64,000 nucleotides of DNA from Escherichia coli (GTDB lineage Bacteria; Pseudomonadota; Gammaproteobacteria; Enterobacterales; Enterobacteriaceae), in the NCBI RefSeq assembly GCF_013122565.1, contig NZ_CP053258.1. One strand, written 5' to 3'. The position numbers and the translations under genes were made by a program. Positions within the stretch are counted from its first letter, which is position 1; the number at the start of each line of letters is the position of its first letter. Of the stretch, positions 4,869-52,594 are shown in pieces. The notes beneath the pieces are model-generated. The model did not search any database. It was not told where the DNA came from and saw only the letters and a list, made by a program, of their open reading frames with translations.

Positions 4869-6268
4869 ACACTCGCCAGCTACTGAGCGTCGGTATCGAT
4901 ATCGGCACTACCACCACCCAGGTGATCTTCTCCCACCTGGAGCTGGTTAACCGTGCGGCGGTGTCGCAGGTGCCGCGCTACGAATTCATCAAACGCGAAA
5001 TTAGCTGGCAAAGCCCGGTGTTCTTTACCCCTGTCGATAAACAGGGTGGTTTAAAAGAAGCGGAACTGAAAACCTTAATCCTCGAGCAATATCAGGCTGC
5101 GGGCATTGCGCCGGAAAGCGTTGATTCTGGTGCCATCATCATCACCGGTGAAAGCGCGAAAACCCGCAATGCTCGCCCGGCGGTGATGGCGCTCTCCCGG
5201 TCGCTGGGCGATTTTGTCGTCGCCAGCGCCGGGCCGCATCTCGAATCCGTGATCGCCGGTCACGGTGCCGGGGCGCAAACCCTTTCTGAACAACGGCTGT
5301 GTCGGGTCCTGAATATCGATATCGGCGGTGGCACCGCGAACTACGCCCTGTTCGATGCCGGAAAAATCAGCGGTACTGCCTGCCTCAACGTCGGCGGTCG
5401 CCTGCTGGAAACCGACAGCCAGGGGCGCGTGGTTTACGCTCATAAACCGGGGCAGATGATTGTGGATGAGTGCTTCGGCGCAGGCACCGACGCCCGTTCG
5501 CTGACCGGCGCGCAGCTGGTGCAGGTTACCCGGCGGATGGCAGAGCTGATTGTCGAAGTGATTGACGGAACGCTTTCGCCGCTCGCGCAGGCATTAATGC
5601 AAACCGGTTTGCTGCCCGCAGGTGTTACGCCCGAAATCATTACGCTTTCTGGCGGCGTGGGCGAATGTTATCGCCACCAGCCCGCCGACCCGTTCTGTTT
5701 TGCCGATATTGGCCCGCTGCTGGCAACGGCGCTGCATGACCATCCGCGCCTGCGTGAGATGAACGTGCAGTTTCCGGCGCAAACCGTGCGTGCCACGGTG
5801 ATTGGCGCGGGGGCACATACCCTTTCGCTCTCTGGCAGCACAATCTGGCTTGAGGGCGTACAACTGCCGCTGCGCAATTTGCCGGTGGCGATCCCGATTG
5901 ATGAAACGGATCTGGTGGGTGCCTGGCAACAGGCGCTGATTCAGCTGGATCTTGATCCCAAAACTGACGCGTACGTGCTGGCGCTTCCCGCCTCGCTGCC
6001 TGTGCGTTACGCCGCGGTACTGACGGTCATCAACGCGTTGGTCGATTTCGTCGCGCGTTTTCCGAATCCGCATCCCCTGCTGGTGGTGGCCGGGCAGGAC
6101 TTTGGTAAAGCTCTGGGCATGTTGTTGCGCCCACAGCTACAACAACTCCCGTTGGCAGTCATTGACGAAGTGATTGTCCGCGCGGGGGACTATATCGACA
6201 TTGGTACGCCTCTTTTTGGCGGATCGGTTGTGCCGGTGACGGTGAAATCACTCGCATTTCCTTCCTGA
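4865..6268 (+). CDS. eutA: Ethanolamine ammonia-lyase reactivase EutA
   Basis: 467-aa ORF; GTG start overlapping eutH stop (GTGA); eut synteny. Confidence 0.92.
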   Translation: MNTRQLLSVGIDIGTTTTQVIFSHLELVNRAAVSQVPRYEFIKREISWQSPVFFTPVDKQGGLKEAELKTLILEQYQAAGIAPESVDSGAIIITGESAKTRNARPAVMALSRSLGDFVVASAGPHLESVIAGHGAGAQTLSEQRLCRVLNIDIGGGTANYALFDAGKISGTACLNVGGRLLETDSQGRVVYAHKPGQMIVDECFGAGTDARSLTGAQLVQVTRRMAELIVEVIDGTLSPLAQALMQTGLLPAGVTPEIITLSGGVGECYRHQPADPFCFADIGPLLATALHDHPRLREMNVQFPAQTVRATVIGAGAHTLSLSGSTIWLEGVQLPLRNLPVAIPIDETDLVGAWQQALIQLDLDPKTDAYVLALPASLPVRYAAVLTVINALVDFVARFPNPHPLLVVAGQDFGKALGMLLRPQLQQLPLAVIDEVIVRAGDYIDIGTPLFGGSVVPVTVKSLAFPS

Positions 6269-6279
6269 GGGAACGACTT

Positions 6280-7641
6280 ATGAAACTAAAGACCACATTG
6301 TTCGGCAATGTATATCAGTTTAAGGATGTAAAAGAGGTGCTGGCTAAAGCCAACGAACTGCGTTCGGGGGATGTGCTGGCGGGCGTCGCAGCGGCAAGCT
6401 CACAGGAGCGCGTGGCGGCAAAGCAGGTGTTGTCGGAAATGACCGTAGCGGACATCCGCAATAATCCGGTGATTGCCTATGAAGATGACTGCGTGACGCG
6501 GCTGATTCAGGACGATGTTAACGAAACGGCCTACAACCAGATTAAAAACTGGAGCATCAGCGAACTGCGTGAGTATGTGCTGAGCGATGAAACCAGCGTG
6601 GACGACATTGCCTTTACCCGCAAAGGGCTGACCTCGGAAGTGGTCGCGGCGGTAGCGAAGATTTGCTCCAACGCGGACCTGATTTACGGCGCGAAGAAAA
6701 TGCCGGTAATCAAAAAGGCCAATACCACCATCGGTATTCCGGGCACCTTCAGCGCCCGTTTGCAGCCAAATGACACCCGTGACGACGTGCAAAGTATCGC
6801 CGCGCAAATCTACGAAGGGCTTTCCTTCGGGGTGGGCGATGCGGTGATCGGCGTTAACCCGGTGACTGACGACGTGGAAAACTTAAGCCGCGTGCTGGAC
6901 ACCATCTATGGCGTGATCGACAAATTCAACATCCCAACTCAGGGCTGCGTACTGGCGCACGTCACCACCCAGATCGAAGCGATTCGTCGCGGCGCGCCTG
7001 GCGGACTGATTTTCCAGAGTATCTGTGGCAGCGAAAAAGGGCTGAAAGAGTTTGGCGTGGAACTGGCGATGCTCGACGAAGCGCGCGCAGTGGGTGCAGA
7101 GTTCAACCGTATCGCCGGGGAAAACTGCCTCTACTTCGAAACCGGACAAGGTTCAGCGCTATCCGCTGGCGCTAACTTCGGCGCAGACCAGGTGACGATG
7201 GAAGCACGTAACTATGGGCTGGCGCGTCATTACGATCCGTTTATCGTCAACACCGTGGTCGGCTTTATTGGGCCGGAGTATCTCTACAACGACCGCCAGA
7301 TTATCCGTGCGGGCTTAGAAGATCACTTTATGGGCAAGCTGAGCGGCATCTCTATGGGCTGTGACTGCTGTTACACCAACCACGCTGACGCTGACCAGAA
7401 CCTCAACGAAAACCTGATGATCCTGCTCGCCACCGCAGGCTGCAACTACATCATGGGGATGCCGCTGGGTGATGACATCATGCTCAACTACCAGACCACC
7501 GCATTCCACGATACCGCCACTGTGCGTCAGTTACTCAACCTGCGCCCGTCACCGGAGTTTGAACGCTGGCTGGAAAGCATGGGCATTATGGCAAACGGTC
7601 GCCTGACCAAACGGGCGGGCGATCCGTCACTGTTCTTCTGA
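6280..7641 (+). CDS. eutB: Ethanolamine ammonia-lyase heavy chain EutB
   Basis: 453-aa ORF immediately downstream of eutA; sequence matches recalled EutB. Confidence 0.95.
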   Translation: MKLKTTLFGNVYQFKDVKEVLAKANELRSGDVLAGVAAASSQERVAAKQVLSEMTVADIRNNPVIAYEDDCVTRLIQDDVNETAYNQIKNWSISELREYVLSDETSVDDIAFTRKGLTSEVVAAVAKICSNADLIYGAKKMPVIKKANTTIGIPGTFSARLQPNDTRDDVQSIAAQIYEGLSFGVGDAVIGVNPVTDDVENLSRVLDTIYGVIDKFNIPTQGCVLAHVTTQIEAIRRGAPGGLIFQSICGSEKGLKEFGVELAMLDEARAVGAEFNRIAGENCLYFETGQGSALSAGANFGADQVTMEARNYGLARHYDPFIVNTVVGFIGPEYLYNDRQIIRAGLEDHFMGKLSGISMGCDCCYTNHADADQNLNENLMILLATAGCNYIMGMPLGDDIMLNYQTTAFHDTATVRQLLNLRPSPEFERWLESMGIMANGRLTKRAGDPSLFF

Positions 7642-38208: not shown

Positions 38209-38427
38209 ATGGAAAAAGAGCAGCTGATTGAAATAGCCAATACGATAATGCCGTTTGGCAAATACAAAGGGCGTCGCTTAATCGACCTGCCGGAGGAGTA
38301 TCTGCTGTGGTTTGCCCGCAAAGATGAGTTCCCGGCAGGGAAGCTCGGTGAGCTAATGCAAATCACGCTGCTGATTAAAACCGAGGGGCTGACGCAACTG
38401 GTCCAGCCCCTGAAGCGTCCGCTTTAA
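38209..38427 (+). CDS. ypeB: Small protein YpeB (DUF3820)
   Basis: Trimmed to ATG 38209 (MEKEQLIEIANTIMPFGKYKGRR...), 72 aa, immediately after ligA stop. Confidence 0.8.
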   Translation: MEKEQLIEIANTIMPFGKYKGRRLIDLPEEYLLWFARKDEFPAGKLGELMQITLLIKTEGLTQLVQPLKRPL

Positions 38428-39422
38428 GCTTTATCGGCGCTGCTTTCCTGCTGCGCCTGTAACTGTTCGGTCTGGCGTTTGTATCGACGCGCCAGCACCG
38501 CACAGACCATCAATTGGATCTGATGGAAAATCATCAGGGGCAGCACCATCATACCGATCACCGATGTGGGGAACAGAATGTTTGCCATCGGGATGCCATT
38601 TGCCAGACTCTTTTTCGAACCACAAAAGACGATAGTAATTTCATCTGCTTTATTGAAGCCCAGTCGGCGTGCCATAAAGACGTTAACTACAATCACGATA
38701 GCCAGAAGAACGCAGCTGGCCACCACGATAAACAGCAATGATCCCCAGCCAACTTTATGCCAGATACCATTAACGACGGCTTCGCTGAACGCTGTATAAA
38801 CCACCAACAGAATGGACGTCTGGTCAGTTTTCGCAATCCATTTTTTATTGCGCGACACCCAGTCACCAATCCACGGCCGGGAAAGATGCCCTAACACAAA
38901 CGGCAGCAACAGTTGCAGCATAATTTTACCGACCTGCTCAAGGCTGCCCCCTGCACCGTGAACATTCATCACCAGGCCAACCAACAATGGTGAAAGGAAA
39001 ATCCCCAGCAGGCTGGATGCCGACGCAGAACAAACCGCCGCCGCGACGTTACCGCCCGCCATTGACGTGAAGGCGATTGCAGACTGCACGGTCGCGGGGA
39101 GAATGCACAAGTAGAGAAAACCGGAGTAGAGCATCGGGTCGACATTTACCGGTTTCCACCAGGCAAACAGCACGCCCAGAATCGGAAACAGCACGAAGGT
39201 GCTGCACATTACCCACAAATGCAGTCGCCAGTGACCACCGCCAGCAATAATCGCCTCACGCGACAACTTCGCGCCGTGCATAAAGAACAGCAGGGCAATC
39301 GCTGCGGTGGTCAGATTTTCAAAGAAGGGGACGAAATCGCCTCTGGCCGGAAAGAAAGAGGCCAACAACACCACCGTGATCAGGGTTAAGGTGAAAGGAT
39401 CGAGGATACGAAAAAGTTTCAT
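38424..39422 (-). CDS. yfeH: Bile acid:sodium symporter (BASS) family transporter YfeH
   Basis: 332-aa polytopic membrane ORF. Confidence 0.9.
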   Translation of the reverse strand: MKLFRILDPFTLTLITVVLLASFFPARGDFVPFFENLTTAAIALLFFMHGAKLSREAIIAGGGHWRLHLWVMCSTFVLFPILGVLFAWWKPVNVDPMLYSGFLYLCILPATVQSAIAFTSMAGGNVAAAVCSASASSLLGIFLSPLLVGLVMNVHGAGGSLEQVGKIMLQLLLPFVLGHLSRPWIGDWVSRNKKWIAKTDQTSILLVVYTAFSEAVVNGIWHKVGWGSLLFIVVASCVLLAIVIVVNVFMARRLGFNKADEITIVFCGSKKSLANGIPMANILFPTSVIGMMVLPLMIFHQIQLMVCAVLARRYKRQTEQLQAQQESSADKA

Positions 39423-39939
39423 AAAGACTCCAGATGATCGATGCTTTCATTGTGCGTTGTTCTGATTGATAAATAAAACTGAATTGCTTATCAATTTGTG
39501 CGCGAGGAGTGTGAGTGAGTTGCTCGCTCGCTTCGACTGGTTGGCAGAGCGGGGGAGGATATCCCGGATGAGACAAATAAGACGTTCGACAAGAGAATCA
39601 GGTGACTACAGAAAAAATCACAGGATGTTATTACTGCTGATGTTCATGTCGGTTTTCGCGTTATCAGAACTGGTTTTAGAACTGCTATTTAATCGATAAT
39701 GCCATTCTGCAGGAAAGCTTTACCTACTTTATTATTTGCGGTGTGGTAAAACCTGGTCACCAGAGGCAGGTTTAATACCAGACGCTGTCTTTTATCAGAT
39801 ATCCCATGTAAATAATAAATGCAATGAATATTAATTCATTATGTATTTATTTTGTGATTGTTTGGTGTTACTAGTTTGTTGGACAAATAACAACTCTAAC
39901 TAATACATAAACCTTGCATAGTGACAGAGTATCGATCTG

Positions 39940-39977
39940 AATGTTTTCAACATTGATATCAAATTGCAATTGATATC
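39940..39977. promoter_or_regulatory. Candidate operator upstream of the NupG-like transporter: inverted repeat ATGTT-ttc-AACAT followed by two TTGATATC palindromes spaced 17 bp
   Basis: Read directly: gaATGTTttcAACATTGATATCaaattgcaaTTGATATCcg, 75-110 bp upstream of the 40051 start. Confidence 0.35.
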
Positions 39978-40050
39978 CGTGGTAAAAAGTATTGGTAAAT
40001 TTGATGAATTTCCGGATATTTAAAGGGGCGGCTCAAAGACGAAGGGGAAG

Positions 40051-41307
40051 ATGGTGAATCTAAAACTACAGTTAAAAGTTCTTTCATTTCTGCAATTCTT
40101 TTTGTGGGGAAGTTGGCTCAACACATTCGGTTCTTATATGTTTATCACGCTGCGTTTTAAGGGCGAAGATATAGGCGCAGTCTACAGTACACTGGGTATC
40201 GCAGCATTAATAACATCAACGTTATTTGGTATCGTGGCCGATAAATGGATTAGTGCTAAATGGATATATGCCGCTTGTCATTTATTTGGCGCGATAACAT
40301 TATTTATCGCAGCATCGGTTACCACGCCTTCGGCAATGTTCATTGTCATTTTACTTAACTCTCTTGTGTATATGCCAACACTCGGTTTGAGTAATACAAT
40401 TTCCTATTACCGCCTACAAACAGCGGGGATGGATATTGTGACAGAATTTCCGCCAATCCGTATCTGGGGCACGATTGGATTTATTGTCGCAATGTGGGCG
40501 GTTAGCCTGGCTGGTTTTGAATTAAGTCATATGCAATTATATATCGGTGCGGCGGCTTCATTAGGCTTGAGCCTGTTCACGTTGACTTTACCAACTGTAC
40601 CAGTGGCGAAATCTAACCAGGCGCAAGGAATGATAGATGTTCTCGGATTGCGTGCATTTACACTGTTTAAAAACAGCAAAATGGCGATTTTCTTTATCTT
40701 TGCCATGCTGCTCGGGGCAGAGTTACAAATTACCGGGATGTTTGGTAATACATTTCTCCACAGCTTTGAGAGCGTTCCAGAGTTTACCAATAGTTTTGTT
40801 GTTACCCATGCTTCTATTCTGTTATCAATTTCTCAGATATCCGAAGTCTGTTTCATTCTTGCCATTCCTTTTTTCCTGAAAAAATACGGTATCAAAAATG
40901 TCATGCTGATGAGCATGGTGGCCTGGATGCTGCGTTTTGGTTTATTCGCTTATGGCGATCCTTCATTCGGTGGTACCATTCTGTTAATTCTTTCGATGAT
41001 TGTTTATGGCTGTGCTTTTGACTTCTTCAATATATCTGGCTCGGTATTTGTTGAACAAGAAGTTGATCCATCGATTCGTAACAGCGCTCAGGGCGTTTTC
41101 CTGATGATGGCCAATGGTTTTGGTTGTATTCTGGGCGGTTTTATCAGTGGTAAAGTCGTCGATTATTTAACAACGGATGGCAATCCACAGTGGTCAACCA
41201 TTTGGCTGGTATTTGCCGGATATTCACTGGTTCTGGCTCTCGCATTTATGGTGTTGTTTAAATATAAACACAACGGTAACCCGACAACGTCCGGTCATTT
41301 CGCCTGA
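40051..41307 (+). CDS. Nucleoside:H+ symporter, NHS family (NupG/XapB paralog)
   Basis: 418-aa 12-TM-like ORF; near-collinear similarity to recalled NupG and to XapB encoded 2 kb downstream (e.g. LQFFLWGSWL, FPPIRIWGTIGFI, GCAFDFFNISGSVFVEQEV). AT-rich codon usage. Confidence 0.85.
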   Translation: MVNLKLQLKVLSFLQFFLWGSWLNTFGSYMFITLRFKGEDIGAVYSTLGIAALITSTLFGIVADKWISAKWIYAACHLFGAITLFIAASVTTPSAMFIVILLNSLVYMPTLGLSNTISYYRLQTAGMDIVTEFPPIRIWGTIGFIVAMWAVSLAGFELSHMQLYIGAAASLGLSLFTLTLPTVPVAKSNQAQGMIDVLGLRAFTLFKNSKMAIFFIFAMLLGAELQITGMFGNTFLHSFESVPEFTNSFVVTHASILLSISQISEVCFILAIPFFLKKYGIKNVMLMSMVAWMLRFGLFAYGDPSFGGTILLILSMIVYGCAFDFFNISGSVFVEQEVDPSIRNSAQGVFLMMANGFGCILGGFISGKVVDYLTTDGNPQWSTIWLVFAGYSLVLALAFMVLFKYKHNGNPTTSGHFA

Positions 41308-41361
41308 TACGGAGTTTATCAAAATTAATAATGTTTTATAGGATTCGCAAAAGAGGAAGTT

Positions 41362-42273
41362 ATGGCAAATCAATTGTATAACCAGTGTCGGGTTTATTGT
41401 GCACCCTGGCGATTAGATGCTTTAAATTTAAATGATATCATTGATCAATGGATTGACGAGGGGCTGTTGCCGCCCCTGATCCATACTTTTCTTCCATATC
41501 GCGATGATGCCGGTGCCTCCAGTGAAGAAGAGATTTTTGTTAACGATGTCGCGAATATGGATAACAGTGTTGGGGTTATCGGTTATTTCGATGGTGGAAC
41601 CTATGATTCCGGTTATGCATGGGCTTTAGGGATGCCTGTTCACCTGGTAACGACAGACTTTCTTATATGGGCAGCGGGGAATTCTTCAGAGTTTTATCCT
41701 ATAAGTAAGCTGATGAATTATGTGGCAAAAGTGGTTTCTGTGTCAGATTCCGATACCAGTATCAGCAATTATCGTGAACAAACCGACGATATCATCAAGC
41801 GTGCGTTGCAAATTTTTCAACAAAATTTAATCGCCGACTTCGGCACGACGATTAATCCAGCAGTACCGGTTACTCCATTGCCGATTGAGTATGACTACTA
41901 TATTGATCCTAACTTTATGTATACCGAACCCTCTCGGGACTTACTGGTGAAGATCAAAGATGCGATCATTAGTGCAGGTAAGACTTTCATCGTTGGCGAC
42001 AACATGAATGATATTGCGACTGATATTGATAACTTAAGAAAATCCAGACAGGCCATCTTTTATTCCGATACCTTTGAGCCGAATGTTGACACCGGCATTA
42101 TGAATGGTATTGCCTATGCATTAGGACAGCAATCGATTATTTATTGTAGCAAGCAACAAAAATATCAATCTGCGCTCGCGACAGATTATTTAAATTTAAT
42201 GATTACCTGGTCGTCAACGGTGGCGCATTCATTTGCGGAACTTGAAACATTGATTGGTAACACAGAAAAATAA
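41362..42273 (+). CDS. Hypothetical protein with two tandem nucleoside 2-deoxyribosyltransferase-like repeats
   Basis: 303-aa ORF with RBS agaggaag; internal repeat ([DS]G..[YI]A[WY]ALG at ~aa 80-95 and ~aa 255-270) resembling the NDT/DNPH1 D-x-G-..-E-x-G-Y-A-x-A-x-G-K-P-V motif. Fold assignment is inference. Confidence 0.6.
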   Translation: MANQLYNQCRVYCAPWRLDALNLNDIIDQWIDEGLLPPLIHTFLPYRDDAGASSEEEIFVNDVANMDNSVGVIGYFDGGTYDSGYAWALGMPVHLVTTDFLIWAAGNSSEFYPISKLMNYVAKVVSVSDSDTSISNYREQTDDIIKRALQIFQQNLIADFGTTINPAVPVTPLPIEYDYYIDPNFMYTEPSRDLLVKIKDAIISAGKTFIVGDNMNDIATDIDNLRKSRQAIFYSDTFEPNVDTGIMNGIAYALGQQSIIYCSKQQKYQSALATDYLNLMITWSSTVAHSFAELETLIGNTEK

Positions 42274-42284
42274 TAGTTAATTTT

Positions 42285-42330
42285 ACTGATTATCAGGTGA
42301 GTGATTGCCTGATAATCAGCTTTTTGTTAG
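42285..42330 (+). terminator. Rho-independent terminator after the 303-aa gene
   Basis: Perfect 12-bp inverted repeat CTGATTATCAGG...CCTGATAATCAG followed by ctttttg. Confidence 0.65.
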
Positions 42331-42501
42331 CCACCAAAGAAAAATATACTGCCGTTATATTTCTCTGCCGGGGAACGATATGATCGATTTCAAAATTATA
42401 TTGAATATCTCTGGAAAATGTATTGGTCACTCGCGACTTTTTCTCGCTATAAAAAAATGTGACTCAGATCTAACGCATAATGCTTATTACAAGGACTTGC
42501 C

Positions 42502-43335
42502 ATGACCCAATCTCATTTTTCACAAAACCCGTGGTATTGCGCAGATATCATTCGTCGTCATAAACCAGACTTTACCCCACGCGTTGCGTTTATTTTGGGT
42601 TCGGGACTGGGAGCGCTGGCTGAACAAATAGAAGACGCAGTTGCCATTTCTTATAGCGATTTGCCGGGGTTTCCGGTGAGCACCGTACACGGCCATGCAG
42701 GAGAGTTGGTCCTCGGCGTGCTTTCTGGTGTGCCTGTAGCCTGCATGAAAGGTCGCGGTCATTTTTATGAGGGCCGGGGAATGACTGTCATGACTGATGC
42801 TATTCGCACGTTCAAGTTGCTGGGCTGTGAATTGTTGTTCTGCACTAACGCTGCAGGTTCGCTTCGCCCGGAAGTAGGGGCGGGTAGTCTGGTTGCGCTG
42901 AAAGATCACATTAATACGATGCCAGGCACACCGATGACAGGCCTTAATGATGAGCGTTTTGGTGAACGTTTTTTCTCATTAGCGAATGCTTACGATGCTG
43001 ATTACCGCGCCGTTTTACAAACCGTCGCGCATGAAGAAGGTTTTCCGCTGACAGAAGGGGTTTTTGTTTCTTATCCGGGGCCGAACTTCGAAACGGCGGC
43101 AGAAATTCGCATGATGCAGCTGTTTGGTGGCGACGTAGTAGGTATGTCTGTAGTGCCTGAAGTGATTAGCGCACGTCATTGCGAAATGAAAGTCGTTGCC
43201 GTGTCAGCAATAACCAACATGGCGGAAGGCTTAAGCGATGTGAAATTGTCGCATGCCCAAACCCTGGCTGCAGCAGAGTTATCACGACAAAACTTTATTA
43301 ATTTGATTTGCGGATTCTTACGCAAAATCGCCTGA
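42502..43335 (+). CDS. xapA: Xanthosine phosphorylase (purine nucleoside phosphorylase II) XapA
   Basis: 277-aa PNP-family ORF; xapAB-xapR synteny. Confidence 0.93.
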   Translation: MTQSHFSQNPWYCADIIRRHKPDFTPRVAFILGSGLGALAEQIEDAVAISYSDLPGFPVSTVHGHAGELVLGVLSGVPVACMKGRGHFYEGRGMTVMTDAIRTFKLLGCELLFCTNAAGSLRPEVGAGSLVALKDHINTMPGTPMTGLNDERFGERFFSLANAYDADYRAVLQTVAHEEGFPLTEGVFVSYPGPNFETAAEIRMMQLFGGDVVGMSVVPEVISARHCEMKVVAVSAITNMAEGLSDVKLSHAQTLAAAELSRQNFINLICGFLRKIA

Positions 43336-43392
43336 AAACAATAAAAATGGCCTCGCGGATGGGGCCATCTCTCTGCGATAAGGAAACGAAAA

Positions 43393-44640
43393 ATGAATAT
43401 CGCAACGCGTTTAAAGGTAATGTCTTTCTTACAATATTTTATCTGGGGGAGTTGGTTAGTTACCCTCGGATCTTACATGATAAACACCTTACATTTTACC
43501 GGGGCTGATGTCGGTATGGCATACAGTTCTAAAGGCATTGCGGCCATTATTATGCCAGCCATTATGGGCATTATTGCCGATAAATGGTTACGGGCTGAAC
43601 GTACCTATATGCTGTGTCACTTAATTTGTGCCGGGGTGCTTTTTTATGCCGCCTCCGTAACTGAACCGAATATGATGTTCTGGGTGATGTTGCTTAACGC
43701 GATGGCTTTCATGCCCACGATTGCGTTATCCAACAGTGTTTCCTATTCGTGCCTGGCGCAGGCCGGATTAGACCCAGTCACCAGTTTTCCGCCAATCCGT
43801 GTTTATGGCACCGTGGGATTTATTGTCGCAATGTGGCTGGTGAGTTTATTGCATCTGGAGTTAAGTAGTGTGCAGTTGTATATCGCTTCTGGAGCATCTT
43901 TAGTGTTAGCGATCTATGCATTAACATTACCGAAAATTCCAGTGGCGGAACATAAAGCCAGTACGACGCTTTCCAGTAAATTAGGCCTGGATGCGTTTGT
44001 GTTATTTAAAAATCCGCGTATGGCGATTTTCTTTTTATTTGCTATGTTATTAGGTGCGGTACTGCAAATTACTAACGTTTTTGGTAATCCTTTCCTGCAT
44101 GACTTTGCCCGCAATCTTGAGTTTGCTGATAGCTTCGTGGTGAAATATCCATCCATTTTGCTCTCGGTTTCACAAATGGCGGAAGTCGGCTTCATTCTTA
44201 CCATTCCATTCTTCCTGAAGCGTTTTGGCATCAAAACCGTCATGTTGATGAGTATGGTAGCGTGGACGTTACGCTTTGGCTTCTTTGCCTTTGGCGACCC
44301 ATCGGCAGGTGGCTTTGTATTATTGTTGTTGTCGATGATTGTGTATGGCTGCGCGTTCGACTTTTTCAATATCTCCGGTTCAGTGTTTGTCGAGCAAGAA
44401 GTGGACTCCAGGATCCGCGCCAGCGCTCAGGGTTTATTTATGACTATGGTCAATGGCGTTGGGGCGTGGATTGGTTCTCTTCTGAGTGGCATGGCAGTTG
44501 ACTATTTCACGGTTGATGGCGTGAAAGACTGGCAAACCATCTGGCTAGTATTTGCTGCGTATGCACTGGCCTTAGCGGTGATTTTTGCCCTGTTCTTCCG
44601 TTATAAGCATGAACCTGATAAATGGCGCAGAAATCATTGA
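43393..44640 (+). CDS. xapB: Xanthosine permease XapB (NHS family)
   Basis: 415-aa membrane ORF downstream of xapA. Confidence 0.93.
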   Translation: MNIATRLKVMSFLQYFIWGSWLVTLGSYMINTLHFTGADVGMAYSSKGIAAIIMPAIMGIIADKWLRAERTYMLCHLICAGVLFYAASVTEPNMMFWVMLLNAMAFMPTIALSNSVSYSCLAQAGLDPVTSFPPIRVYGTVGFIVAMWLVSLLHLELSSVQLYIASGASLVLAIYALTLPKIPVAEHKASTTLSSKLGLDAFVLFKNPRMAIFFLFAMLLGAVLQITNVFGNPFLHDFARNLEFADSFVVKYPSILLSVSQMAEVGFILTIPFFLKRFGIKTVMLMSMVAWTLRFGFFAFGDPSAGGFVLLLLSMIVYGCAFDFFNISGSVFVEQEVDSRIRASAQGLFMTMVNGVGAWIGSLLSGMAVDYFTVDGVKDWQTIWLVFAAYALALAVIFALFFRYKHEPDKWRRNH

Positions 44641-44716
44641 CTCACTGATGTAAACAGGGTTTTCCTTGATTGCAATGTGCTAAGTTTGCAGCCTTACCCA
44701 TACCGCGTGGAGCGCA

Positions 44717-45607
44717 ATGATTATGGAAGGTACGCATCGTATTGATCTCAAGTTATTGCGCTATTTTCTTGCGGTCGCAGAAGAACTTCACTTTGGGCGG
44801 GCCGCTGCGCGGCTGAATATGTCGCAACCGCCATTAAGTATTCATATTAAAGATCTGGAGCAACAGTTGGGCACGTTGCTGTTCGTTCGTCATTCGCGCA
44901 GTGTGGCGCTCACTCATGCGGGGAAAATTTTACTGGAAGAGTCACGTCGTCTGCTGGCTAATGCCAGTCAGGCGTTGGCACGAGTAGAACAGATCGGTCG
45001 TGGTGAGGCAGGGCGCATTGAGCTGGGCGTGGTGGGAACCGCAATGTGGGGGCGAATGCGTCCGGTAATGCGGCGGTTTTTGAAAGAGTGCCCTAATGTT
45101 CATGTCTCATTTCGTGAAAAATCACCAGGGATGCAAATGGCATTGCTCGAGCGGCGGGAGCTGGACGCGGGTATCTGGCGGATGGCAATTGAACCCACGA
45201 CGGGATTTACCAGTCTGCGATTACACGAATCTTCGTTTTTGGTGGCGATACCGGAAGATCATCATCTGGCTTGCGAAAACGCTATCCCGTTAATGGCATT
45301 ACGCAATGAATACTTTGTGACGCTGCCATCGGTCCATTCCGACTGGGCGTTTTTACAGCGTGTCTGTCAGCAGGCAGGGTTTTCACCGATGATCGTTCGG
45401 GAGGCCGTAGAACCGCAAACCGTACTGGCGATGATCAGTATGGGGCTGGGTGTGACATTAATGGCAGATAGCTATGCCCAAATGAGCTGGCCGGGTGTGG
45501 TATTTCGTCCACTCGAGGAACGTATTCCAGCAGATTTGTATATTGTTTATGAACAGCAACAGGCAACACCAGCGCTGGAGAGATTAGTTAATGCTTTGAT
45601 AGCATGA
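44717..45607 (+). CDS. xapR: LysR-family regulator XapR
   Basis: 296-aa ORF with N-terminal LysR HTH (LKLLRYFLAVAEELHFGRAAARLNMSQPPLS); exact start uncertain. Confidence 0.85.
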   Translation: MIMEGTHRIDLKLLRYFLAVAEELHFGRAAARLNMSQPPLSIHIKDLEQQLGTLLFVRHSRSVALTHAGKILLEESRRLLANASQALARVEQIGRGEAGRIELGVVGTAMWGRMRPVMRRFLKECPNVHVSFREKSPGMQMALLERRELDAGIWRMAIEPTTGFTSLRLHESSFLVAIPEDHHLACENAIPLMALRNEYFVTLPSVHSDWAFLQRVCQQAGFSPMIVREAVEPQTVLAMISMGLGVTLMADSYAQMSWPGVVFRPLEERIPADLYIVYEQQQATPALERLVNALIA

Positions 45608-45626
45608 AAGAAGATATCGCAGATAG

Positions 45627-51391: not shown

Positions 51392-52594
51392 TTACAGCAC
51401 CAGTGCTGCGATTGACGCCGACAGCACACTCACCAGGGTAGAGCCGTAAACCAGTTTCAGACCGAAGCGAGAAACCACGTTACCTTGCTCTTCATTCAGG
51501 CCTTTAACTGCACCTGCGATAATCCCGATTGATGAGAAGTTAGCGAAGGAAACCAGGAACACAGAGATGATGCCTTCAGCACGCGGAGAGAGCGTGGAAG
51601 CAATTTTCTGCAGATCCATCATCGCAACGAACTCGTTGGAAACCAGTTTGGTCGCCATGATACTGCCCACTTGCAGTGCTTCACTGGAAGGAACACCCAT
51701 CACCCATGCAATCGGATAGAAGATGTAGCCCAGGATGCCCTGGAAGGAGATGCTGTAGCCAAACCAGCCAGTCACGGTGGCAAACAGTGCGTTCAGCGCG
51801 GCGATCAGGGCGATAAAGCCAATCAGCATTGCGGCAACGATAATGGCAACTTTGAAACCTGCCAGAATGTATTCACCCAGCATTTCGAAGAAGCTCTGAC
51901 CTTCGTGCAGGTTGGACATCTGAATGTTTTCTTCACTGGCATCAACACGGTAAGGGTTGATCAGCGACAGCACGATAAAGGTGCTGAACATGTTAAGTAC
52001 CAGCGCCGCAACGACATATTTCGGCTCCAGCATGGTCATGTATGCACCAACGATGGACATAGAAACGGTGGACATCGCCGTTGCTGCCATGGTGTACATA
52101 CGATTGCGGGAGATTTTGCCGAGGATATCTTTATAGGCAATAAAGTTTTCAGACTGACCCAGAATCAGGGAGCTGACGGCGTTAAAGGATTCCAGTTTGC
52201 CCATACCGTTGACTTTGGAGAGCAGGAAACCAATTGCGCGGATAATCACCGGCAACACGCGAATGTGTTGGAGAATACCGATCAGTGCAGAGATAAAGAC
52301 GATTGGGCACAGCACTTTCAGGAAGAAGAATGCCAGGCCTTGATCATTCATGCTACCAAAGACGAAGTTAGTCCCTTCGTTGGCAAATCCGAGCAGTTTT
52401 TCGAACATTTCGGAGAAGCCTTTCACGAAGCCTAAACCAACGTCGGAGTTCAGGAAGAACCACGCCAGTAACACTTCGATAACAAGCAGTTGAATAACAT
52501 AACGGATACGAATTTTTTTGCGGTCGCTGCTTACCAGCAGTGCGAGAATCGCAACAACGGCAAGTGCCAGTACAAAATGAAGGACGCGGTCCAT
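51392..52594 (-). CDS. nupC: Concentrative nucleoside transporter NupC (CNT family)
   Basis: Track ORF trimmed to ATG 52594 ([14 protein letters not shown]...), 400 aa. Confidence 0.93.

Follow-up and report, generated by a model that had tools for sequence, protein, structure and literature searches.

The short repeats just upstream of a nucleoside permease gene in Escherichia coli are, on the strength of promoter comparisons, probably the operator of a promoter that is controlled by the LysR-type regulator XapR and that drives a separate operon, encoding the permease and a protein resembling nucleoside 2-deoxyribosyltransferase (NDT). The gene lies in a stretch of 64,000 nucleotides (contig NZ_CP053258.1, hereafter the window), which corresponds to the ligA-ypeB-yfeH ... 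xapA-xapB-xapR-tRNA-gltX region of E. coli and has flanks that are 97.6-98.9% identical to K-12. The gap between yfeH and the permease start measures 628 bp (39423-40050). The predicted promoter, the operon it would serve, and the nearby xap elements are as follows, in window coordinates.

39952..39974, plus strand: predicted XapR recognition site, the imperfect dyad ATTGATA-N9-AATTGAT, matching the xapA-promoter dyad
39981..39996, plus strand: predicted XapR activation site GGTAAAAAGTATTGGT, over the -35 region
40015..40022, plus strand: predicted -10 element (GATATT / TATTTA), assigned by its position
40041..40056, plus strand: Shine-Dalgarno sequence GAAGGGGAA and permease start codon(s), ATG 40051 or GTG 40054
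40051..42273, plus strand: two-gene operon that the promoter is predicted to serve, permease and tandem NDT-fold protein
40051-41307, plus strand: NupG/XapB-family nucleoside permease (TIGR00889, 633 bits)
41362-42273, plus strand: 303-aa tandem nucleoside-2-deoxyribosyltransferase-fold protein, annotated by the Prokaryotic Genome Annotation Pipeline (PGAP) as nucleoside 2-deoxyribosyltransferase
42286..42328, plus strand: intrinsic terminator with a 15-bp stem and a T run (-23.9 kcal/mol, z -6.0)
42383..42453, plus strand: the window's own xapA promoter, with its dyad at 42383-42405, TATTGGT at 42421-42427 and TATAAA at 42448-42453
44717..45607, plus strand: xapR, the proposed regulator (NF007439 equivalog, 515 bits against a cut-off of 290)

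The original prediction, made from the letters of this DNA, had taken the repeats for a repressor or activator operator whose regulator was not obvious. XapR is a specific candidate, for the boxes coincide position for position with the conserved sites of xapA promoters. These promoters were gathered through XapR orthologues, and the 11 that were obtained (E. coli K-12, three window-type alleles, Salmonella, Klebsiella, Citrobacter enshiensis, Kluyvera, Leclercia, Enterobacter, and Atlantibacter) were aligned without gaps, using the motif TATTGGT as anchor. One ungapped layout is common to these 11 promoters, which represent 8 genera, and to four permease promoters: AT(C/T)(G/A)ATA, N9, TAT(C/T)GAT, GAAAAnTG, TATTGGT, N20, and a -10 element. 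TATTGGT was found in every xapA promoter compared (as TATTGGC in C. enshiensis), usually after GAAAAnTG, and the -10 element of these promoters, TATAA(A/C), follows exactly 20 bases later. The permease dyad aligns gaplessly to the ATCGATA-N9-TATCGAT dyad that is conserved in the 11 xapA promoters. Its half-sites are ATTGATA (39952-39958) and AATTGAT (39968-39974), with T39957 and A39969 forming a T-N11-A motif, and the two copies of the octamer TTGATATC in this region cover both half-sites of the predicted XapR dyad. Downstream of it, TATTTA (40017-40022) begins 20 nt after TATTGGT, the same place as TATAAA in the xapA promoters.

To score this resemblance, a 73-nt weight matrix was built without any window sequence, from the xapA promoters of eight other strains and genera, and was run along both strands of the window (127,856 positions). 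The window's own xapA promoter ranked first with 61.9 bits and the permease promoter second with 14.9 bits (the T of TATTGGT at 39990), and the third match, which is unrelated, reached -25.9 bits (mean -110, standard deviation 18.7). The 25-nt dyad sub-matrix from the eight foreign promoters gave 24.1 for the permease dyad, rank 2 of 127,952, against 25.8 for xapA and 15.9 for the next unrelated match, and the activation-site sub-matrix gave 18.0 for GGTAAAAAGTATTGGT, rank 2 of 127,970, against 19.6 for xapA and 13.2 for the next. The best local match of the permease upstream region within the window was also the xapA upstream region (39952-39996 against 42383-42427), with a score of 33 that none of 2000 shuffles reached. 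A second, unrelated coding segment scored 31 by way of a 14-nt exact match, so that local alignment alone is not decisive. This 14-nt match, ATCTGAATGTTTTC, is found at 39935-39948 and at 51918-51931, inside a 413-aa open reading frame (ORF) on the minus strand, and is probably due to chance.

The site recurs in related loci, where the permease site is either the best match or second only to the locus's own xapA site, and the next match falls below -12 bits.

IAI39 permease site: 32.3 bits; next match other than its own xapA site, -12.6
SCPM-O-B-8794 permease site: 20.3 bits; next match other than its own xapA site, -12.3
E. albertii permease site: 32.5 bits; next match other than its own xapA site, -13.3
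Citrobacter permease site: 46.9 bits; next match, -16.6

In Citrobacter the operon is found elsewhere on the chromosome, at an unrelated locus where no xapABR genes occur within 8 kb; the site there lies 274 bp upstream of the permease gene. A LysR gene upstream of this Citrobacter operon was considered as a XapR relative and rejected, since the identity is 27% and confined to the helix-turn-helix region. E. albertii differs from the window at 32% of third codon positions and has kept the boxes and their spacing, with a dyad sub-matrix score of 25.1, while the second TTGATATC copy has changed to TGGATCGT. That the dyad is kept while an octamer copy is lost points to the XapR boxes as the target of selection and not to the palindrome itself. 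Among closer relatives, the 46 nt of dyad and activation site show no differences from IAI39 and one from SCPM-O-B-8794, whose third codon positions differ from the window by 9.8% and 15.3%, respectively; this conservation within Escherichia lends modest support, and the comparison across genera and across loci is the stronger evidence from sequence. We had also considered a sharp conservation boundary near 39930 as a footprint. This was dropped, as the overall divergence between the window and IAI39 is only ~5% (9.8% at third codon positions), and the real anomaly against IAI39 is the strongly diverged ompK side of the gap.

The permease is a paralogue of xapB (~68% nucleotide identity), and the likeness to xapA promoters might therefore be a relic of an old xap-type promoter that was duplicated together with its permease, in which case XapR would no longer control the promoter, or the promoter would be dead, and the operon would be expressed constitutively, by other means, or not at all. 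The -10 element, which deviates from the xapA type, and the decay of the neighbouring porin gene, suggestive of an eroding locus, would suit such a history. We nevertheless judge it unlikely. What the promoters share is limited to the functional boxes and their spacing, whereas the spacers are wholly different, and the boxes have survived both the 32% divergence at synonymous sites in E. albertii and relocation in Citrobacter. Moreover, both genes of the operon are intact, and their divergence from E. albertii at codon positions 1, 2, and 3 (2.6%, 0.7%, and 32%) shows that they are under purifying selection.

The proposed regulator itself is in good condition. XapR is intact and 79% identical to K-12 XapR, and nine orthologues, that of K-12 among them, agree in 51 of 54 alignment columns of the winged-helix region (residues 8-61). 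The start of xapR lies 4.7 kb downstream of the repeats, the distance that had been given for it originally. The strong terminator at 42286-42328 separates the permease/NDT-like operon from xapA, which has its own XapR-type promoter. The anatomy of the gap, the architecture shared with the xapA promoters and its conservation, the intact XapR, and the separate terminator can thus be regarded as established.

For K-12, Seeger et al. (1995) and Jorgensen & Dandanell (1999) are said to have described the activation of xapAB by the LysR-type XapR with xanthosine. By analogy, one XapR dimer would occupy the dyad ATTGATA-N9-AATTGAT at 39952-39974, near -66, and a second one GGTAAAAAGTATTGGT at 39981-39996, overlapping the weak -35 region. 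The resulting tetramer, bound to its inducer (xanthosine), would recruit RNA polymerase to the -10 element at 40015-40022, and transcription would start near 40029 to yield an mRNA that has a short leader and encodes both the permease and the NDT-like protein. This placement assumes that the -10 hexamer ends at -7, which puts the dyad centre ~66 bp upstream of the predicted transcription start and TATTGGT at about -39 to -33; the start is predicted, from the -10 element, at ~40027-40031 and the leader at ~20-25 nt. What we infer, in this sense, is that XapR binds here, what the inducer is, where transcription starts, and in which direction regulation works. No consensus sigma-70 promoter was found on the plus strand, which fits an activator-dependent promoter. 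The permease start is taken as ATG 40051, and PGAP uses GTG 40054 in a strain that is 99% identical.

The arrangement agrees with what has been published on the K-12 xapAB promoter, which has two XapR sites, one partly overlapping the -35 and one upstream, with removal of the upstream site nearly abolishing induction (PMC7205307); a dyad at about -66 and TATTGGT at about -39 to -33 fit this description. Both promoters have an upstream T-N11-A dyad, a TATTGGT site over a weak -35, and identical spacing to the -10, and both have their cognate regulator encoded nearby and serve nucleoside uptake and catabolism. They differ in that the permease promoter drives another operon (a second permease and a tandem NDT-fold protein), in the -10 (TATTTA versus TATAAA in K-12 xapAB), in the half-sites (ATTGATA/AATTGAT versus ATCGATA/TATTGAA), and in that the permease promoter, unlike K-12 xapAB, is known from sequence alone. 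More generally, LysR-type sites are T-N11-A dyads arranged as a regulatory site and activation sites, as for BenM, which uses ATAC-N7-GTAT, its regulatory site lying near -65 and its activation sites near -35 (PMC11495319). The permease promoter resembles such promoters in its arrangement of two sites, in the T-N11-A motif, and in where the sites lie relative to the core promoter; it differs in its longer half-sites (7 bp, 16 bp centre to centre) and in the location of xapR, which is not divergent from its target and lies downstream in the same orientation.

Several points weigh against XapR control. On the full matrix the permease promoter reaches 14.9 bits, where true xapA promoters score far higher (~60-80 bits), and the -10 region of the permease promoter departs from the xapA consensus (TATTTA, no TCGC), so that the -10 sub-matrix does not match it (rank 7712). 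Judged against the region alone, the repeats exceed chance by no more than a narrow margin (p ~0.08-0.17). Given that permease and xapB are paralogues, part of the likeness between the promoters could be inherited and not selected. Equating the conserved boxes with XapR sites depends on conservation and on a secondary description (PMC7205307), and both binding and expression are predictions from the DNA. In Citrobacter, the search for xapR covered 8 kb around the operon.

We lean towards the view that the XapR regulon exceeds xapAB in some Citrobacter and in a minority of the genus Escherichia, namely E. albertii and 15 of 5426 complete E. coli genomes, by adding a second, separately terminated operon for a permease and a rare tandem NDT-fold enzyme; this would amount to an undescribed, xanthosine-induced branch of (deoxy)nucleoside salvage. 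To our knowledge, XapR is credited with a single target operon in K-12. A literature search found no paper on this cassette or on a second XapR target. If correct, the XapR regulon would be enlarged, and XapR with xanthosine would switch on a second nucleoside operon. This would be an ordinary though undescribed case that does not challenge existing concepts. The XapR-site consensus derived across genera can be used to scan other genomes, and the promoter would offer a regulatory handle on a rare, uncharacterised enzyme.

The 303-aa NDT-like protein is twice as long as usual NDTs and contains two weak PF05014 halves. Its AlphaFold2 model (predicted local distance difference test score 77, predicted template modelling score 0.82) matches solved NDTs over ~143 residues, that is, over one half only. 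The family is rare, with 26 clusters, and a search of representative genomes with the protein returned two loci only; loci further afield were found by way of protein clusters and the contigs that carry them. In distant metagenomic relatives the neighbours are deoC, deoB, PNP, and sugar ABC-transporter genes, and the regulators are of the DeoR or Crp family.

As to the repeats themselves, the octamer TTGATATC (39953-39960 and 39970-39977) is part of a repeated unit of 9 nt, ATTGATATC, at 39952 and 39969. The two copies and their spacing of 17 bp (start to start) were thus correctly noted before, and the description of the octamer as a palindrome does not hold: TTGATATC is not itself palindromic, and GATATC is. 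Two 10-bp palindromes are nevertheless present, TTGATATCAA, which holds the first octamer copy, and AATTGCAATT at 39962-39971. The identical TTGATATCAA stands in the xapA promoters of Klebsiella and C. enshiensis; K-12 reads TCGATATCGA. The inverted repeat ATGTT-ttc-AACAT was likewise found where it had been reported, at 39941-39953, and its arms extend to 6 bp:

39940..39954, no strand assigned: inverted repeat AATGTT-ttc-AACATT, lineage-specific, in the window and in strain LHM10-1

This repeat is broken elsewhere, as ATGTCTTCAGGAT in IAI39, SCPM-O-B-8794, and E. albertii, where 39940-39954 reads AATGTCTTCAGGATT in the first two and AATATGTTCAGGATT in the last, and it has no counterpart in the compared xapA promoters. 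We compared the repeats with 500 shuffles of the region. The region has five inverted repeats with arms of 6 bp or longer, where 2.2 are expected (p ~0.10); for a direct repeat of 9 nt or more inside 30 bp p was ~0.08, and for two 10-bp palindromes it was ~0.17. Since it is not conserved, lacks a xapA counterpart, and is of a kind common in shuffles, ATGTT-ttc-AACAT is probably incidental. The importance of the TTGATATC boxes comes from the comparison with other promoters and not from the statistics of the region. The idea of a repressor or activator operator consequently survives for the two octamer copies, which look like an activator site, and not for the unconserved inverted repeat. Across the window, on both strands, TTGATATC has 12 copies against 1.8 expected from dinucleotide-preserving shuffles, most of them far outside the gap (e.g., 18105, 20544, 20625, 22802, 28410, 37036, and 62283).

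With a nucleoside permease as cargo and a Tsx-family porin gene once adjacent, the classical nucleoside regulators come to mind, either CytR in an anti-activator complex with CRP, as at tsx, nupG, cdd, and deoP2, or the DeoR repressor. CytR requires flanking CRP sites, and only two CRP-like matches (7/10) were found in the region, where ~3 per kb are expected by chance. A palindrome TTGCAA, one published form of the CytR core (PMC3454398), does occur between both boxes, at 39965-39970. It is single, however, and lies in the non-conserved N9 spacer, where E. albertii reads TCGAAA. The permease promoter thus resembles CytR/CRP promoters (tsx-p2, nupG, cdd, and deoP2) in its nucleoside transporter cargo, the once adjacent Tsx-family porin gene, and the TTGCA(A) motif, and differs from them in having no credible CRP sites and no conserved TTGCAA. 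In the case of DeoR, whose 16-bp operator TGTTAGAATTCTAACA usually occurs in several copies, the best match in the gap region has 11 of 16 positions, at 39877-39892; a second such match lies at 41255-41270, and there are just 11 in the 64 kb. ATGTT-ttc-AACAT, at 13 bp, has the wrong length and spacing for this operator and is not conserved. All in all, we consider control by CytR or DeoR improbable. The two DeoR-like matches, TGTTGGACAAATAACA (39877-39892) and TGTTTAAATATAAACA (41255-41270), bracket the permease gene, and in the IAI39 allele the first of them has ~12 of 16 matches, as counted by hand; they are weak and could be due to chance.

The composition of the gap raises one more alternative. 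The original prediction had called the gap unusually long and AT-rich, and its 37.9% GC, against 51.9% for the window, is indeed within the lowest 1% of 628-bp windows. The AT-rich tract could then be chiefly a nucleation site for H-NS, silencing a horizontally acquired cassette, with palindromes that have no specific partner. The GC content of 25.6-35.5% over 39809-40050 and of 41% over the operon would be in keeping with it, as would the foreign look of the segment 39486-45614, whose identity to K-12 is 72-77%, against 98-99% in its flanks. Composition fails, however, to explain the position-specific conservation of the boxes across genera, and H-NS binding would supplement XapR control instead of replacing it. 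Silencing by H-NS is compatible with the composition, but as the main function of the tract it seems very improbable to us.

The predicted XapR promoter takes up only the end of the gap, the remainder of which has a different origin.

38424-39422, minus strand: yfeH (yfeH-like ORF)
39423..39676, no strand assigned: yfeH upstream spacer, with the first ~63 bp common to the K-12 yfeH-yfeR intergenic region and no yfeR remnant
39677..39808, minus strand: scar of an ompK/yfeN (Tsx-family) outer-membrane porin gene, with its 3' end at ~39677-39741 and its 5' end at 39742-39808
39809..39929, no strand assigned: former ompK-proximal half of the divergent ompK/permease control region, with 25.6% GC and ~70% identity to the IAI39-type allele

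The 628 bp are therefore made up of a 254-bp yfeH upstream spacer, a pseudogene scar of ~130 bp, and ~240 bp of a former divergent control region. No credible ORF was found in the gap, small ORFs included. The gap had also been described as a leader of 628 bp, which is at odds with the predicted -10 at 40015-40022 and a 5' untranslated region of merely ~20-25 nt; its length is due to the decayed porin gene together with the yfeH upstream spacer. A leader RNA or riboswitch was rejected in view of this short untranslated region and of Rfam, which gave no matches over 39300-40200 at E up to 1. The absence of yfeR, which in K-12 occupies this position, was borne out, and a tblastn search with YfeR detected no remnant in the gap.

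The gap is long because the neighbouring porin gene has decayed. In IAI39 (locus L002) an intact ompK gene of 768 bp lies at 5262-6029, between yfeH and the permease gene and divergent from the latter. Window positions 39300-39740 align to 4901-5331 of this locus, and 39742-40199 to 5974-6431. In the window ~642 bp of the interior has been deleted at the 39741/39742 junction, and the start codon ATG has become ATA. The last codons still encode an OmpK-like peptide, with OmpK residues 231-248 matching window positions 39748-39695 (tblastn, E 6e-6). The upstream sequence is present in 15 of the 5426 complete E. coli genomes; eight of these (IAI39, CE10, and others) keep the intact 768-bp ompK/Tsx-family gene, and the ~642-bp deletion is common to the window and seven similar genomes. 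Strain SCPM-O-B-8794 has the full set of yfeH, yfeR, ompK, permease gene, NDT-like gene, and xapABR. The long AT-rich "leader" is thus a scar of gene decay, which matters for the annotation of the variable yfeH-xapR interval. Porin genes beside the xap genes have been lost independently several times, as judged from the scar in the window, from E. albertii (L021 4083-4704), with a 622-bp gap and no porin remnant, and from one Salmonella isolate (L014 4509-5587), with a frameshifted copy.

The 97.6% identity to K-12 stops at 39485, and from 39486 to 45614 the yfeH-to-tRNA-Lys interval is a divergent allele, in which xapA, xapB, and xapR have 72-77% nucleotide identity to K-12. E. coli of the IAI39/CE10 type and E. 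albertii have the same allele family (95% and 86% identity, respectively), and the segment looks like an allelic replacement or an old polymorphism. Close to its start, upstream of yfeH, there is a perfect dyad with 8-bp arms, ATTGATAA-N15-TTATCAAT, at 39465-39495. It is found in yfeR-less alleles (the window and, with one mismatch, IAI39), and yfeR-carrying genomes read TTTGAGAAATAAAATTGATTTATTGCATC at this place.

Some further observations concern spacers in the interval. The core-promoter spacer and short leader of the permease gene (39997-40045, TTTGATGAATTTC.GGATATTTAAAGGGG.GGCTC) have ~4 differences from E. albertii in 38 positions, compared with the 32% seen at third codon positions. 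They are more conserved than a plain spacer would need, and may hold a further XapR activation sub-site or a site for another factor. In the K-12 xapA promoter (L013), CGGGACAACCTCGCTA takes up the larger part of the N20 spacer and extends into the -10 TATAAA. Its reverse complement, TAGCGAGGTTGTCCCG, is the site of the LysR-type HusR/YnfL that was identified by genomic SELEX (gSELEX) in the K-12 xapA-yfeN spacer (PMC12844172); the spacers of the window promoters are unrelated. An ORF of 52-55 aa without a Pfam match is located between xapB and xapR in Salmonella, Citrobacter, Kluyvera, Leclercia, and Enterobacter (L014 7791-7949, L016 7790-7948, L017 7792-7950, L018 4788-4955, and L019 4791-4949), and at this position the xapB-xapR gap of the window measures only 76 bp.

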